A stretch of 52,703 bases of DNA from Anaerolineae bacterium. Lineage in GTDB: Bacteria > Chloroflexota > Anaerolineae > Promineifilales > Promineifilaceae. A program made the translations under genes and the position numbers. The DNA lies in contig JANTHP010000001.1 in NCBI GenBank assembly GCA_024762395.1, positions 1 to 52,703 on the forward strand, in the 5' to 3' direction. Shown piece by piece: positions 3,612 through 39,972 of the stretch. Position 1 is the stretch's first letter. Each line of letters opens with the position of its first letter. Under the pieces are notes generated by a model. It was not told where the DNA came from. It was given only the letters and a program-made list of their open reading frames with translations, and did not search any database.

Positions 3612-3712
3612 AATGGATAATTTATAACGGATAACGAGCAATGGCGAATGAAGGAGTCTTCCGCTGGCGAGAAATTGATAATTATCCGTTATGCGTTATT
3701 CATTATCCATTT
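3612..3712. repeat. inverted period-7 arrays (AATGGAT AATTTAT AACGGAT ... / ATTATCC GTTATGC ...) forming a hairpin
   Basis: Read directly from the spacer between the cyclophilin gene and ORF 3775. Confidence 0.8.
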
Positions 3713-3774
3713 TCTTCGCTTGCCGCATGCGGCTCTCTTGTGCCAGCATCATCTGGCACAAGACGTAGGTTCTT

Positions 3775-4272
3775 ATGAGAAAATTACAAGTGGCGCTGCG
3801 TCAGTTCATATATAAACATGGTATTGCCCAAACAATCACGTTCATCACGGTATTGGCCGTCATCATCTCTGCTTTTTTGACGCTTTCCGTCCTGGTTACC
3901 GTTGGCGTAAGTGACGAGATTGACATGCTGGTAGGATTTGTCATTTCCATTATCGTTCCAATTGTTCTTGCGCCATCATCATTATTCGTTATTTTTAAGC
4001 TGTTAGTTCAAATTGACGAGGCGGAACGAGCGCACGCACAGCTTGTGATTGAGCTGCAAGAAGCGCTGGCCACGGCCAAGACATTAAGCGGGCTGCTGCC
4101 CATTTGCTCTTCCTGCAAGAAAATCCGCGACGATGAAGGTTATTGGCATCAGGTTGAAGTATATGTGCGCGACCATTCAGAGGCGAATTTTAGTCATGGC
4201 ATTTGCCCCGATTGCATGGAGAAAATGCGCGCTGAATTAGCTGAGATGAAGAGCCAGAAGTTGGGGCTGTAG
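3775..4272 (+). CDS. small membrane protein with coiled coil and a C-terminal CxxC...CxxC (zinc-ribbon-like) module
   Basis: Two predicted TM helices, then LPICSSCKKIRDDEGYWHQVEVYVRDHSEANFSHGICPDCMEKM. I recognise this C-terminal motif as recurring at the ends of bacterial signalling proteins. Its function is unknown to me. Confidence 0.6.
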   Translation: MRKLQVALRQFIYKHGIAQTITFITVLAVIISAFLTLSVLVTVGVSDEIDMLVGFVISIIVPIVLAPSSLFVIFKLLVQIDEAERAHAQLVIELQEALATAKTLSGLLPICSSCKKIRDDEGYWHQVEVYVRDHSEANFSHGICPDCMEKMRAELAEMKSQKLGL

Positions 4273-4490
4273 GCGTGGCATTTGAGCAGCCCCGACGCGG
4301 TTAAAATCGCTCTAAGAGGTGCGAGTCCTACGGGTATAGGACTTAAGGGTTTTGCGCTTATAGGACAGATTTCCTACCCGGCGCCATCCATTTCTCTGGA
4401 TTCCTCTAAAAAATCCCCCATAATGATTCCGACATTGCCTCCCTCTTGGCGCTGTTATTCCTCGCCAAGCATAGCCCCAATAGAACCACA

Positions 4491-4607
4491 GTAACTACTA
4501 ACCCTGTCATTTCTGCGCAGACAGGAATCCACTGCATGGATACCCGCCTGTGCGGAGCCTACCCTCATGAAAATGGGGGTATGGCACCAGAGATGCTTAG
4601 TAGTTAC
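4491..4607. mobile_element. 117-bp MITE-like element with the same termini but a different interior
   Basis: GTAACTACTAA...TTAGTAGTTAC with a perfect 8-bp duplication, GAACCACA (4483-4490) / GAACCACA (4608-4615). Confidence 0.85.
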
Positions 4608-4704
4608 GAACCACAAAACCAAATAAAACACGTAGTTGAAGTGAATGTGGGTTCTCAATTCGATAAGTGAACGTCTATAAATACGTTTCTTTTTTTGCCG
4701 GGAT

Positions 4705-4730
4705 GTTTCGGGGATTGAAATTCCCGAAAC
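4705..4730. repeat. REP-like palindrome GTTTCGGGGATT-GA-AATTCCCGAAAC
   Basis: Same palindrome as at 23899-23924, including the preceding ATG. Confidence 0.8.
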
Positions 4731-4789
4731 GCGGAAGTAAATAATGGGCGATTACTAAGTATTGAAGCCTTGTGAGGTTACGATTAACG

Positions 4790-5791
4790 ATGCATAAACA
4801 ATCGAAAATATCTTTTGAGCGGGTAAGGGGTGGATGCTGTGTGAATATAAAATTTTTACTTTTGCTGGGGTTAGTATTTATGGCGATTTTTCTCATTACC
4901 ACCCCCAAAAAGACCAATGCCGATACTGATCAGATTGAGGCGGAGTATTGGCAGTACTTCCCTTTAGTTGTCAAGAATTATCGGCTGGCGCAGTTTAAGG
5001 GCATTCCCTATGGCCCTTTTCATTTCGGTGAGGAAGTGGCGGATTATGATCATCCTAAAGCGCTGGCTTTTAATAGTGGGTTTGTTGATCTGGGTTTGAA
5101 GAGCGATATAGCCATAGATATTTTGCTGAGTGAAGCCCGCGATCATGATTATCGGCTTATCGTAAATATCGGCCAAAGTTACCCTTGTGTTTATTGGGAT
5201 GGTCAAACGTTTGATGGGGCGGCATTTGTGAATGAAGTCTTGGGACGGGCTGACAATATCGCTCCTTTTTACCCTGATACGGTTGTTGGTATTATTTTGC
5301 TGAATGAGCCTCATGATCCGCAGCCGGAATGTCAGCCCGGCATTCCCCCACAATATCTGTATAATGCGGCTCAACAAATTCGCGCCGGATTGGCAGCGTA
5401 TGGGATGGAAGATATTTATTTGGGTTTTGGCAGCCCGCCAAATTTTATCGAAGAGGGCTTGTCTGAAGCGCAAGCCCGTGATGGCACGATTAATCTTTCA
5501 TTTGCGCAATGGTCGGATAGTATTGACTTCAATGCTTGGGTTGACATTGTGCAAGGGGCTGCCAGCCGCATGAGCGAAGGGGGGCATCCCCACAAAATTG
5601 TTTATTCTATAAACAGTTTGAAGTTTACTTCTCAGGAATTGATTGATTTTAACATGTGGGCATGTGTGCAAGGTGATGCTTTTACTGTGACCTGGTGGCA
5701 TTGGAACCTGATTGATGGGCCGAAGGATCAAATCTCGCTTTCTCAATTTCAATCTGTAAGGGATGTGTGCGATGATTTTGATGGATATTAG
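4790..5791 (+). CDS. secreted or anchored TIM-barrel glycoside-hydrolase-like protein (clan GH-A-like)
   Basis: GAGG lies 11 nt upstream of ATG 4790; alternative starts are 4772 and 4841. Hydrophobic N-terminal segment IKFLLLLGLVFMAIFLITT. ILLNEPHD resembles the GH5-type NEP acid/base motif. Confidence 0.55.
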   Translation: MHKQSKISFERVRGGCCVNIKFLLLLGLVFMAIFLITTPKKTNADTDQIEAEYWQYFPLVVKNYRLAQFKGIPYGPFHFGEEVADYDHPKALAFNSGFVDLGLKSDIAIDILLSEARDHDYRLIVNIGQSYPCVYWDGQTFDGAAFVNEVLGRADNIAPFYPDTVVGIILLNEPHDPQPECQPGIPPQYLYNAAQQIRAGLAAYGMEDIYLGFGSPPNFIEEGLSEAQARDGTINLSFAQWSDSIDFNAWVDIVQGAASRMSEGGHPHKIVYSINSLKFTSQELIDFNMWACVQGDAFTVTWWHWNLIDGPKDQISLSQFQSVRDVCDDFDGY

Positions 5792-5816
5792 TGTGAGAGG
5801 AAACGGCCGTTTCCAG

Positions 5817-5846
5817 TTGACGGCCGTTCCCCCACCATGCTATACT
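5817..5846 (+). promoter_or_regulatory. sigma-70-type promoter for the valS T-box leader
   Basis: TTGACG (5817-5822), an 18-nt spacer, then TATACT (5841-5846), just upstream of T-box stem I. Confidence 0.55.
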
Positions 5847-39134: not shown

Positions 39135-39138
39135 TAAT

Positions 39139-39197
39139 TAACAGTTGACAGCGGATGGTTGATAGTTATCAACTAATCATTGTCAACTATCAACCAA
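39139..39197. repeat. inverted period-7 arrays forming a hairpin in the ffh-rpsP spacer
   Basis: taacagt tgacagc ggatggt tgatagt tatcaac taatcat tgtcaac tatcaac. Confidence 0.75.
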
Positions 39198-39220
39198 AAA
39201 AGTGGAGATTAAAACAAGTT

Positions 39221-39577
39221 ATGCTTCGTATTCGTTTGAGCCGAACTGGAAAGAAGGGGCAACCCAGTTATCGTATTGTTGTGACTGATAAAAGAATGAA
39301 GCGAGACGGCCGTATCGTCGAGCGCATTGGTAATTTTTACCCGCTAACTGAGGCGAATGAATTTAAGATTCAAGAATCGCGGGCTTTGTATTGGCTAAGC
39401 GTGGGCGCGCAGCCTTCGGATGCTGTGCGTCGTTTGCTGGAAAAACAAGGCACATTTGATCGTCTGAAGCGGTTCCATGCCGGCGAGTCTGTCGAAGCGT
39501 TGGTTGCCGAATATGAAGGCGTTGACCTGACGGCCGTAGCTGAGGCCGAAGCGGTCGCCGCTGACGAAGAAGAATAA
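39221..39577 (+). CDS. rpsP: 30S ribosomal protein S16
   Basis: Start taken at ATG 39221 (MLRIRLSRTGKKGQPSYRIVV). The track ORF start at 39155 reads through the repeat array. Confidence 0.92.
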   Translation: MLRIRLSRTGKKGQPSYRIVVTDKRMKRDGRIVERIGNFYPLTEANEFKIQESRALYWLSVGAQPSDAVRRLLEKQGTFDRLKRFHAGESVEALVAEYEGVDLTAVAEAEAVAADEEE

Positions 39578-39582
39578 ATCGG

Positions 39583-39816
39583 ATGAAAGAACTCGTTGAA
39601 TTTATCGTTAAATCCCTGGTGGATAATCCCGATCAGGTGGTTGTGAGCGAGATTGACGGCCATTCTTCAACTATTTATGAATTATCGGTGGCACAGCCGG
39701 ATATGGGGCGTGTCATTGGCAAAGGCGGGCGCGTTATCAACTCGATTCGGGCCATTGTCCAGGTGGCAGCAGCCAAGCAAGGGCAGCGCGTTTCGTTGGA
39801 AATAATTGAAGATTAA
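39583..39816 (+). CDS. KH-domain RNA-binding protein (YlqC/UPF0109 family)
   Basis: 77 aa with GRVIGKGGRVINSIR (GXXG KH motif). It occupies the conserved position between rpsP and rimM. Confidence 0.85.
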   Translation: MKELVEFIVKSLVDNPDQVVVSEIDGHSSTIYELSVAQPDMGRVIGKGGRVINSIRAIVQVAAAKQGQRVSLEIIED

Positions 39817-39818
39817 GG

Positions 39819-39911
39819 GTAACTACTCAGTCTCAGAGGTGACAGTCACTTAAAATGCAGCAAGTTGTGACCAATACCTCTGAGAAAAGTGACTGTCACC
39901 TGAGTAGTCAC
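39819..39911 (+). mobile_element. MITE-like element, subfamily 1
   Basis: GTAACTACTCAG...CACCTGAGTAGTCAC with a perfect 8-bp duplication GATTAAGG on both sides. The left copy contains the KH-gene stop codon. Confidence 0.9.
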
Positions 39912-39914
39912 GAT

Positions 39915-39972
39915 TAAGGATTGGAGATTGGAGATTGATCGCTCCCTGAGCCTCTAACCTCCGGCCTCTAGT
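39915..39972. repeat. period-7 tandem array directly after the MITE
   Basis: aaggatt ggagatt ggagatt gatcgct ccctgag cctctaa cctccgg cctctag. Confidence 0.75.

Follow-up and report, generated by a model that had tools for sequence, protein, structure and literature searches.

What accounts for the tandem arrays, built from units of seven or sometimes eight nucleotides, that recur along contig JANTHP010000001.1 of an Anaerolineae bacterium (Chloroflexota, Promineifilaceae; assembly GCA_024762395.1)? The stretch analysed here, referred to as the window, is the whole of positions 1 to 52,703 of this contig. The original prediction, made from the letters alone, was that such arrays fill most intergenic spacers up to position 39972, that their period is conserved while the unit sequence is free, and that they arise by slippage or templated extension rather than by the spread of a single element. 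Our analysis identifies the arrays as the Chloroflexota counterpart of the heptamer repeats of cyanobacteria, so that what is new is the host, at phylum level, and neither the kind of repeat nor the mechanism. Comparison of related sequences indicates that they are probably a lineage trait of an Anaerolineae clade, thinner in other Chloroflexota.

We employed a self-match scan at every period from 1 to 30, with two thresholds, and compared the window with 20 dinucleotide-preserving shuffles. At the strict threshold there were six arrays of period 7 and five of period 8, plus multiples of these periods, and none in any shuffle. The loose threshold gave 10 arrays of period 7 (324 nt) and nine of period 8 (311 nt), compared to 0-0.15 per period in the shuffles, while periods 1-6 and 9-13 yielded 0-2 arrays each and none was enriched. 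The multiples found were periods 14, 16, 21, 24, and 30, and Tandem Repeats Finder (TRF) returned 64 rows for the window, mostly of periods 7 and 8 and their multiples. Altogether about 20 array loci lie across the 52.7 kb. All 14 intervals listed in the original prediction hold the arrays described there, nine of them clearly; those at 3612-3712, 17253-17322, 18399-18428, 37605-37632, and 39139-39197 are degenerate yet recognisable. The claim that most spacers carry arrays proved too broad, the actual figure being 13 of the 32 spacers of at least 25 nt (41%). Strong arrays are nevertheless concentrated between genes, with eight of 14 loci in the 10% of sequence that is intergenic (p = 2e-5). 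The window thus displays the features of short tandemly repeated repetitive (STRR) sequences: an excess of head-to-tail 7-nt units at many dispersed, mainly intergenic loci, in few shared families.

The same periodicity is found beyond the window. We assembled a clade set of 144 kb from relatives found via a glycosyltransferase gene, comprising six loci (five assemblies and the window contig). Pooled, these contain 43 arrays of period 7 and 20 of period 8, with at most six for any other period from 2 to 13, so the period is a conserved feature, as had been proposed. Three relatives carry the following arrays, listed with the density of the octamer palindrome ACGGCCGT considered below.

L083: 20 kb, GC content 60%, eight period-7 arrays, one period-8 array, ACGGCCGT at 2.2 per kb.
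L085: 22 kb, GC content 55.5%, 12 period-7 arrays, four period-8 arrays, ACGGCCGT at 2.5 per kb.
L091: 22.5 kb, GC content 58.5%, 13 period-7 arrays, six period-8 arrays, ACGGCCGT at 2.9 per kb.

L081 and L092, the closer relatives, carry the palindrome and lack strong arrays, their 12-14 kb being coding almost throughout. Other Chloroflexota loci around the valyl-tRNA synthetase (ValRS) gene valS (287 kb) hold seven arrays of period 7 and five of period 8, and sequence from other phyla (1.14 Mb) holds 11 and four, with no peak at 7. Expressed per 100 kb, period-7 arrays number ~30 in the clade, 2.4 at the other Chloroflexota valS loci, and 1.0 in other phyla. Neither outcome that would have refuted the original prediction, a distribution with no peak at 7 or a confinement of the arrays to the window, was thus observed.

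An assembly artefact was rejected as the source of the arrays, which are reproduced with their flanks, at 0 differences, by Logan contigs from five runs (X1 to X5) of two studies (2017 and 2022); independent contigs also cover the 163-nt array at 6121-6283, including its junctions to a T-box and to valS. A cyanobacterial origin, a point raised in the original prediction, was rejected as well. The closest ValRS matches are metagenome-assembled genomes of Anaerolineae and other Chloroflexota (identity at most 71%), the GT39-type glycosyltransferase has hundreds of relatives at 55-67% identity among Anaerolineae, Promineifilaceae, Ardenticatenales, and Ca. Leptofilum, and the cyanobacterial highly iterated palindrome HIP1, GCGATCGC, has 0 copies in the window. 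The window sequence is present in hydrothermal-vent metagenomes, and the host is an uncultured member of the Anaerolineae with a depth of ~100x in the metagenome of origin. Exact look-ups of the RimM, Ffh, and P0075 proteins matched no record.

The arrays of the window, together with the leader that adjoins one of them, are listed below; fold energies here and in the text were compared with those of shuffled controls (z).

3612-3712, unstranded: degenerate period-7 inverted arrays (AATGGAT../..ATCCATT) around a centre of 31-50 nt, part of a multicopy 126-nt unit at 3606-3731 (inverted repeats I6 and I9; fold -32.6 kcal/mol, z -3.6), beginning straight after a small hairpin and T-run at 3587-3611.
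5864-6117, plus strand: valS T-box leader (Rfam RF00230, 110.6 bits, E 1.2e-23), with its terminator at 6081-6110 and a T-run.
6121-6283, plus strand: period-8 inverted array (TRF), about eight units of TAGTCAGG then about 12 of GACTACNN, from the T-box terminator to the valS ATG at 6284; arms of 61 nt, 80% complementary, identical in X1, X4, and X5 contigs.
11116-11189, unstranded: period-7 inverted array (GGAGAYT)n/(ARTCTCY)n in the gap where two genes converge, overlapping one stop codon and abutting the other; previously placed at 11130-11188, it truly begins at 11116, and X1 and X4 contigs span it unchanged.
17253-17322, unstranded: weak direct array passing from 8 to 7 nt (AAGTGGGN, GGTGTGGA, GATTRAC), 30 nt from a miniature inverted-repeat transposable element (MITE), with no fold signal.
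18399-18428, unstranded: short array with a TAGAG core and periods 6/7, downstream of a kinase gene (TRF period 6/12-13).
19624-19695, plus strand: period-8 direct array of about eight GGGGTTGC units (TRF, 7.8 copies, 96% matches), between a divergent Ser/Thr kinase gene, whose ATG is read at 19599, and tRNA-His; the eight units at 19633-19694 on the plus strand are a candidate G-quadruplex former.
19724-19771, plus strand: two direct arrays of period 8, (CTGACACT)3 and (ACTTGCAA)3, preceding tRNA-His.
19884-19941, plus strand: period-7 inverted array, GAGGAAT GAGGACT GAGTGTT and its mirror, filling the tRNA-His/tRNA-Arg spacer; arms of 26 nt, 92% complementary.
20036-20087, plus strand: period-7 inverted array (CGTGAAA CGTAAAA../CGTTTTA CGTTTTG) after tRNA-Arg, with a MITE at its 3' edge.
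21981-22068, plus strand: direct GAGACT+N or +NN units of mixed 7/8 nt (TRF period 30, 2.9 copies, 91% matches), occupying the entire spacer from the stop codon to 3 nt before the next ATG.
22598-22653, plus strand: period-7 array passing from (CGTGATG)3 to (CGTCATG)3 (TRF, 8 copies), which takes in one gene's stop codon and the start region of the gene that follows.
37605-37632, plus strand: short period-7 array, CGTGAAA CGTGATG CGTGAAA CGTTAG, whose words connect to many other loci in Logan contigs.
39139-39197, unstranded: degenerate period-7 inverted array of TGACAGT-like units (inverted repeat I11), unchanged in X4 and X5 contigs.
39915-39972, plus strand: (GGAGATT)n whose second half is partly complementary, with a MITE on one side and rimM on the other.
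44485-44542, plus strand: in-frame (TCGCGCA/TCACGCA)5(TCACGTT)3, whose product SRIAHYASRIAHHVSRFTF lies in a loop of a PMT-type glycosyltransferase; an X1 contig runs across it with 0 differences.
45026-45049, plus strand: in-frame (TTTCACG)3.4 close to the N-terminus of the membrane protein encoded next (..FHVSRFMF..).
49712-49757, plus strand: in-frame (ACGCTTC)2(ACAATTC)4.5, whose product RFTLHNSQFTIHNSQ forms part of loop 1 in a GT39-like protein.
49878-49917, plus strand: in-frame (CAATTRA)5.7 in loop 2 of the same protein.
51352-51390, plus strand: in-frame (ATTCACA)5.6, encoding FTIHNSQSTIHNS.
52154-52176, plus strand: in-frame (CGCATCA)3.3, followed by CGTTTCA units (RITHHASRFTF).

The ends of the arrays are flush with functional elements, namely terminators, tRNA ends, stop codons, and start codons. 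The valS array starts 4 nt past the T-run of the T-box terminator and reaches the valS ATG; other arrays start 10 nt past tRNA-His, 6 nt past tRNA-Arg, and 4 nt past the ffh stop codon, or run over stop codons (at 11131, 21996, and 22616) and on to the next start codon. Arrays in L091 are similarly placed, for example at 6200-6271, 15668-15729, and 21080-21145.

About half of the intergenic arrays are inverted pairs. The predicted arrangement, a forward array followed by its reverse complement to give a hairpin, was borne out at eight loci (3612-3711, 6122-6252, 11117-11189, 19883-19942, 20036-20087, 22598-22640, 39138-39193, and, weakly, 39915-39972). The strongest folds lie at 6115-6290 (-99 kcal/mol, z -12) and 19880-19945 (-45.8 kcal/mol, z -10.8), followed by 20033-20090 (-25.2 kcal/mol, z -5.2 on the plus strand), 39135-39200 (z -5.1/-6.8), 11110-11195 (-33/-40 kcal/mol, z -2.7/-7.3 for the two strands), and 22595-22656 (z -3.8; -28.6 kcal/mol on the plus versus -10.6 on the minus strand), whereas direct arrays fold with z near 0. 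The two arms need not be equal, as at 6121-6283 with eight versus 12 units, and variant units can be mirrored between them, as at 19884-19941, where GAGGAAT/GAGGACT pair with ATTCCTC/AGTCCTC. Hairpins of the GGAGATT unit from four genomes all have the form (unit)n, unrelated loop, (complement)n, with arm lengths that vary, and they share no ends and display no target duplications.

A scan for intrinsic terminators, which are GC-rich stem-loops with a U-run right after the stem, did not pick up these hairpins. Terminator-like sites are no commoner in the window than in shuffles (30 vs 26 and 31 vs 26.6), and because canonical terminators are not enriched, the idea that the arrays replace missing terminators stays conjecture. 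Their arms consist of 20-90 nt of repeated units, their loops and ends are not conserved, and GTAG/CGTC tags are incidental, unlike repetitive extragenic palindromic (REP) elements. MITE characteristics are likewise absent from the arrays, the multicopy unit at 3606-3731 having no clear duplication.

Two positions could be compared between lineages. T-boxes were identified at nine Chloroflexota valS loci, three of which carry an inverted array of 7/8-nt units from the terminator T-run to the Shine-Dalgarno (SD) site; the other six leaders are short and free of arrays, and among 31 T-box valS leaders of other phyla there is one weak array-like segment. The units in the three leaders (window 5864-6283; L013 9800-10000; L015 200-373) differ wholly, with TAGTCAGG/GACTACNN in the window, CGTGATG.../...TACGCAG in L013 (-53.8 kcal/mol), and ATCAGCN/CGCTGAC in L015, and in L013 and L015 the leader array is the sole period-7/8 array of the locus. 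This position was hit independently in three lineages and is either a permissive site or a hot spot past the terminator. At the second position, a metagenome scan anchored on the 3' half of tRNA-His returned four loci (L087-L090), too few for a phylogeny of the spacer. Their tRNA-His 3' half is identical to that of the window; L088 and L090 show a terminator hairpin of the ordinary kind at the position of the array, and L087 and L089 have a non-repetitive spacer ahead of tRNA-Arg. Separately, a minority contig of run X2 (depth 6 vs 17) covering 19873-19951 replaces the heptamer hairpin with another 36-nt hairpin, GAAGGAACCAGG...CTGGTTCCTT; it is a co-occurring relative or an allele.

Contrary to what had been supposed, the unit sequence is not free: a few families recur at tens of loci of the genome and in other species, among them relatives with no more than 55-67% protein identity. 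Single-base steps connect the members of each family. The first comprises GGGGACT, GGAGACT, GGAGATT, and AGAGATT, with GAGACT+N or +NN. The second runs from CGCATCA through CGCTTCA and CGTTTCA to CAATTCA (that is, TTCACAA) and CAATTGA, and the third comprises CGTGATG, CGTAATG, CGTCATG, CGTGAAA, and CGTAAAA. Several period-8 units are a 7-nt core plus one base inside one array, such as GAGACTN/GAGACTAC at 21981-22068, AATCTCC/AATCTCCC and AATTACC/AATTACCC in L085, and GGAGATT/GGGAGATT in L091. GGAGATT and TTCACAA units are common to L083, L085, and L091, and L013, whose ValRS is 55% identical, contains a 24-mer, CGTGATGCGTGATGCGTAATGCGT, identical to window 22598-22621. Units common to such distant Chloroflexota point to horizontal spread, to a generator that is sequence-specific, or to selection acting on the sequence. 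Within arrays, identical variant units occur in runs (CGCATCA then CGTTTCA, ACGCTTC then ACAATTC), and in TRF the higher-order periods 14, 16, 21, 24, and 30 match better than the base period.

Read depth and shared blocks bear on how widely the families are spread. Bins bearing arrays have 3-70x the genome depth, the CGTTTCA array ending at 44542 is followed, in contigs of genome depth, by at least 20 different continuations, and 37629 is linked to 44515-44520 by a dozen distinct joins; because contigs at genome depth leave the arrays in so many directions, tens of other loci must carry these families. Over 56 nt, two genes share the composite (CGCATCA)n(CGTTTCA)n at 86% identity (the 52154 region versus 44502-44556), a TTCACAA block with its flank in the 51352-51390 region is 88-92% identical to 49716-49781 in a different gene, and the 126-nt unit at 3606-3731, its non-repeat centre included, has a Logan contig depth of 842 versus ~100 for the genome (~8x). 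Since blocks are shared across genes, the 126-nt unit is multicopy, and the L013 24-mer is identical, arrays or their seeds appear to be copied between loci as well, and possibly between genomes.

Three further observations concern these regions. The spacer at 3567-3768 consists of modules, each multicopy in the metagenome, and its first part (3567-3604, a small hairpin plus T-run) leads elsewhere into different heptamer arrays, for example AATTGCG AATTGCG. An X5 contig that is ~25% divergent 200-350 nt upstream of the array at 22598-22653 is yet identical through it. X5 and X3 contigs display 21 differences at 22235-22319 (85 nt) and four more up to 22380, with identity on both sides; judged from this pattern, 22235-22380, in a SLOG/LOG-like gene, looks like a short recombination tract.

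The original prediction treated the arrays as an intergenic feature ending at 39972, but further arrays lie beyond, inside genes at 43-52.7 kb. Six in-frame period-7 arrays are found in four membrane glycosyltransferase-like genes (43.2-52.7 kb) of a cluster at 43201-52703 that comprises GT-C/PMT-type and YfhO-like proteins. The encoded peptides (SRIAHYASRIAHHVSRFTF, RFTLHNSQFTIHNSQ, NQLTLDNYQLTINN, FTIHNSQSTIHNS, and RITHHASRFTF) adjoin transmembrane helices, place 7-residue repeats such as FTIHNSQ, HHASRIT, and HVSRFTF in loops, and derive from units that occur in coding DNA only in their stop-free orientation. Orthologues from other species have the peptides FTIHNSQFTI, HHVSRIT, and HHASCIT in the same two variable loops, where Ca. 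Leptofilum orthologues have unrelated sequence of equal length. The orthologous coding loops contain TTCACAA in L083 and L085 versus CAATTGA in the window, between species ~60% identical; the coding loops would thus retain an array for long while its unit drifts, in concerted evolution rather than rapid turnover. Inverted (hairpin) arrays occur even inside such glycosyltransferase genes in L085 and L091, and the array-bearing genes are all intact in the six clade loci.

Two other repeats share the window with the arrays. The first is a MITE family with five copies of ~93 nt and 8-bp target duplications, unstranded, at these positions:

17128-17222: MITE copy.
20088-20180: MITE copy, whose duplication TTGCGTTT is the last unit of an array arm.
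27641-27733: MITE copy.
34094-34185: MITE copy.
39819-39911: MITE copy, whose duplication GATTAAGG lies at the 5' edge of an array.

The family has a fixed interior (core AGGTGACAGTCACTT/AAGTGACTGTCACCT), terminal inverted repeats (GTAACTA...TAGTTAC), and target duplications, so that the GTAAC...GTTAC elements are MITEs by definition; related ends at 4491-4607, 46971-47030, and 18000-18327 belong to other short elements with MITE termini. Bins with the MITE reach ~25-50x the genome depth in metagenome contigs, which suggests many copies, roughly at least 100 by a crude estimate. No transposase domain was identified by Pfam in the scanned large open reading frames (ORFs) of the window. The proposed juxtaposition of MITEs and arrays, with the 20088 copy inserted at the edge of one, is confirmed by the duplications TTGCGTTT and GATTAAGG. 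We considered whether the period is itself a MITE target duplication, created by repeated insertion and excision, and dropped this idea as a general explanation, since the MITE duplicates 8 bp whereas period 7 dominates among the arrays; next to the 39819 copy, a period-7 array adjoins an 8-bp duplication.

The second repeat is the palindrome ACGGCCGT, the HIP-like word noticed from the letters. It has 100 copies in the 52.7 kb (1.9 per kb; positions 127, 952, 1002 ... 52521, for example) compared to 1.0 expected; 95 copies are coding, in phases 44/29/22, and one-mismatch variants are rare. Its density is 1.4-2.9 per kb in L081, L083, L085, L091, and L092 and 0-0.3 at other Chloroflexota valS loci. 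By these counts, ACGGCCGT is a HIP1-like highly iterated palindrome of a non-cyanobacterial clade that accompanies the heptamer arrays. In the literature we found no account of heptamer arrays or of ACGGCCGT in Anaerolineae.

Otherwise the window is a compact, ordinary segment of a bacterial chromosome, with valS, ftsH, a lysA-like gene, ffh-rpsP-rimM, iPGM, a row of histidine kinases, toxin-antitoxin pairs, and the cluster of GT-C/PMT-type membrane glycosyltransferases. Three toxin-antitoxin modules lie within 9 kb, at 9059-9750 (Phd/YefM-PIN), 12519-13093 (MazF/PemK with a small upstream ORF), and 17350-17999 (PIN with a small upstream ORF), and the spacers either side of the third hold arrays or MITEs. 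Three tandem HisKA_2 histidine kinases at 29175-34097 share DNA segments that are 75-85% identical, two of the three having a seven-transmembrane (7TM) sensor domain, and the cyclophilin domains at 1000-1439 and 3007-3446 are 73% identical; both repeats appear to be local gene duplications.

How, then, did the arrays come about? With modest confidence, we regard them as STRR-type long simple-sequence repeats (SSRs) that grow by slippage and template switching, are sometimes copied, and are tolerated or perhaps used as RNA hairpins. A seeded array would grow and be homogenised through slipped-strand mispairing of single units and of multi-unit blocks. At stem-loops, template switching between the arms would preserve their complementarity and generate inverted arrays. 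Quasipalindrome correction, which combines slippage with intramolecular template switching, is well documented in E. coli, and the (unit)n-loop-(complement)n form is its expected product. Whole arrays would occasionally be copied elsewhere, by ectopic template switching, gene conversion, or within small mobile units, and on this proposal the few unit families dominate because of such copying. Growth would halt where selection bites, and for this reason arrays would end flush with functional elements or lie in tolerant loops of membrane proteins. Judged by where they lie (one 5' leader, spacers within operons, and the spacer between two tRNAs), the inverted arrays are transcribed and would form very stable stem-loops, with relatives having ordinary hairpins or nothing in these places. 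Such transcripts could act in a REP-like manner, as barriers that stabilise or process mRNA or tRNA precursors rather than as switches; by analogy, this role is the most economical functional guess, and we infer it less firmly than the mode of growth. It is just as conceivable that the arrays are by-products, tolerated and free to lengthen up to the point at which selection intervenes. The part of the original prediction that invoked slippage or templated copying thus accords with the runs of variants, the higher-order periods, the passage from 7- to 8-nt units in single arrays, where a +1 variant has spread through a part, the unequal arms, and the mirrored units, while its exclusion of element spread sits poorly with the shared blocks and the 8x unit.

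Several results weigh against our favoured reading. No change in array length was observed, with 0 gaps in X1-X5 contigs across 6121-6283, 11116-11189, 22598-22653, 39139-39197, and 44485-44542; these contigs were sampled five years apart, and Logan contigs would hide minor or rare alleles. Because no length polymorphism is seen, ongoing slippage is not demonstrated, and the hypervariability that the original prediction entertained is absent from contigs of other strains or years. Apparent alternative paths, such as 22001 to 22042, were discarded as length variants because they are indistinguishable from other loci with the same units. Slippage alone leaves the choice of 7 (and 8) over 5, 6, and 9 unexplained, as it does identical units, and even a 24-mer, in Chloroflexota with a ValRS 55% identical. 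The hairpin of the valS leader must be dispensable because most Chloroflexota leaders do without it. Hairpins are more stable on the transcribed strand in six of seven cases, but we dropped this bias as a sign of selection on RNA since the transcribed strand is G+T-rich, a confounder. Finally, no RNA runs with the window sequence were found.

The arrays could instead be non-autonomous mobile elements, either MITE-like or resembling REPs and bacterial interspersed mosaic elements (BIMEs), with a transposase elsewhere in the genome and slippage secondary. The recurrence of the same families at tens of loci, the palindromic 126-nt unit at ~8x depth with its conserved non-repeat centre, the composite arrays common to different genes, the presence of arrays within coding regions as for intragenic REPs (PMC3733652), and a MITE family with 8-bp duplications active in the same spacers would all fit. 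However, the GGAGATT hairpins of four genomes differ in loops, arm lengths, and ends and lack duplications, there is no consistent GTAG or CGTC tag, and the Pfam scans of the window's large ORFs found no transposase, Y1, or REP-associated tyrosine transposase (RAYT) domain. The MITE duplication, at 8 bp, differs from the dominant period of 7, and loop 1 of the glycosyltransferase equals in length that of array-free Leptofilum orthologues, which looks like replacement rather than insertion; we consider mobility of this kind unlikely. Selection for the sequence itself, with arrays as binding platforms (multiple SD or standby sites, or sites for cold-shock or S1-type proteins) or as G-quadruplex regulators, is a less probable alternative still. 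It would account for identical units retained across distant species, for the SD core within GGAGAYT where local genes use GGAGG-type SDs, and for arrays that reach start codons (6283/6284 and 22068/22071); (GGGGTTGC)8 is G-quadruplex-prone like the GGGGA(T/C)T repeats of Nostoc (PMC4692102), and heptamer repeats are bound by CspB (PMC4679880). Yet the many unrelated families have only their period in common, one family can turn up, in either orientation, in 5' leaders and tRNA spacers, at 3' ends, and in coding loops, the valS leader units differ wholly between lineages, and no regulator is linked to the arrays.

That five or six arrays lie in a GT-C/PMT-type glycosyltransferase cluster, a gene class classically switched by SSRs, raises the question of contingency loci, in which gain or loss of 7 nt (not divisible by 3) would switch surface glycosyltransferase genes by frameshift or tune promoters; hmw phase variation in Haemophilus is reportedly driven by 7-bp repeats (PMC8262952). 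We regard this as very improbable here, given that array-bearing genes are intact in six of six clade loci, contigs of five runs and two studies display no array indel and hence no polymorphism in repeat number, the same array family has persisted long in orthologous loops of species ~60% identical, and most arrays lie between housekeeping genes. It is just as improbable that an enzyme with its own template (a reverse transcriptase or primase-polymerase) adds arrays at DNA or RNA 3' ends in the manner of telomerase. Such an enzyme would explain the fixed period, the strand-asymmetric units (G-rich versus C-rich, as in telomeric repeats), the start of arrays 2-10 nt past sites of RNA 3' ends (the T-box T-run, both tRNAs, and the 3587-3611 hairpin), and the independent recurrence at the valS leader in three lineages, but the unit families outnumber what a single template could supply, divergent promoter regions and gene interiors carry arrays as well, no reverse transcriptase was found in the window or the loci examined, and slippage with template switching explains higher-order repeats and mirrored arms more simply. 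A broader proposal, which we think rather doubtful, is that Chloroflexota, like cyanobacteria, possess an active generator of 7/8-nt arrays that sets the period, be it a property of the replication or repair polymerase or a dedicated templated enzyme, and that nucleates by preference just past structures that form RNA 3' ends (terminator T-runs and tRNA 3' ends, for example), its products being exapted as mRNA hairpins. If so, the independent arrays in valS T-box leaders of three lineages and the co-inheritance of arrays with ACGGCCGT would be its footprints.

Slipped growth with template switching, the origin we favour, also suits what is described for heptamer repeats elsewhere. Such repeats have been known in cyanobacteria since 1990, when Mazel et al. 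reportedly described STRR1, CCCCA(A/G)T (that is, GGGGA(C/T)T), along with STRR2 and STRR3. Like the cyanobacterial STRRs, the arrays of the window are tandem 7-nt units of few families at many dispersed, mostly intergenic loci, with a G-rich strand, and are accompanied by MITEs and by an 8-nt palindrome that is highly iterated. Their main family, GG(A/G)GA(C/T)T, is one base from STRR1 as reported, with exact GGGGACT/AATCCCC units present and a majority of GGAGAYT. Unlike those of cyanobacteria, they have an Anaerolineae host, 8-nt derivatives are common, about half of the intergenic arrays are inverted, and ACGGCCGT takes the place of GCGATCGC. Useful peculiarities of the Anaerolineae arrays lie in their 8-nt derivatives, in hairpins that are frequent and stand at defined RNA positions, and in the arrays that code in frame.

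Heptanucleotides are the commonest class of long SSR in many bacteria, and a polymerase footprint of ~7 nt has been proposed to favour slippage, both according to Mrazek et al. 2007 as summarised in PMC4679880 and PMC4692102. Nostoc PCC 7120 has GGGGA(T/C)T repeats (PMC4692102). In the P6b element of the Nostoc tRNA-Leu intron, as at 19884-19941 and 20036-20087, degenerate heptanucleotide arms form a hairpin and extra non-repeat elements are inserted, but P6b is a single intronic locus whose copy number varies between strains (PMC3488679), whereas the window has many loci and no length variation was seen. The GGGAATC repeats of Xanthomonas are likewise intergenic heptamers, some in convergent inverted pairs and between the same gene pairs in related species, but they represent one G-quadruplex-prone family with extensive length variation between species (PMC4692102), compared to many families here. 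The TAACTGA repeats of marine Beggiatoaceae, cyanobacteria, and Bacteroidetes (PMC4679880) are similar in being direct heptamers upstream of start codons, in crossing phyla, and in being occasionally read through by ORFs as 7-residue repeats (LSVISYQ there, FTIHNSQ in the window); in Beggiatoaceae one unit dominates with almost no inverted sets (PMC4679880), and no array detected in the window consists of TAACTGA. Within the same phylum, the (GATAGRA)n satellites of Chloroflexus aurantiacus are heptamer-derived and scattered over the genome, resembling 18399-18428 (..GATAGAG..), yet they are a single family of satellites only, with no hairpin or coding arrays reported (PMC6749651). REP and BIME sequences share the extragenic, sometimes intragenic, palindromes, mostly downstream of genes, and the RNA hairpins, but a REP is a single palindrome of 20-40 nt that follows a family consensus, bears a GTAG/CGTC tag, and is moved by a RAYT (PMC3733652), in contrast to tandem arrays of variable length and loops.

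For practical purposes, arrays and MITEs of this kind break short-read assemblies of abundant environmental bacteria, and the arrays put odd 7-residue repeats (FTIHNSQ, HHASRIT, HVSRFTF) into predicted proteins. For the study of heptamer repeats, the Anaerolineae clade provides a second, independent system that combines heptamer arrays, an iterated 8-nt palindrome, and MITEs. Because it offers 7/8-nt variants of the same cores, hairpins at defined positions, and in-frame arrays, comparative tests become possible, both for enzymes that co-vary with the trait and for arrays as marks of RNA ends.

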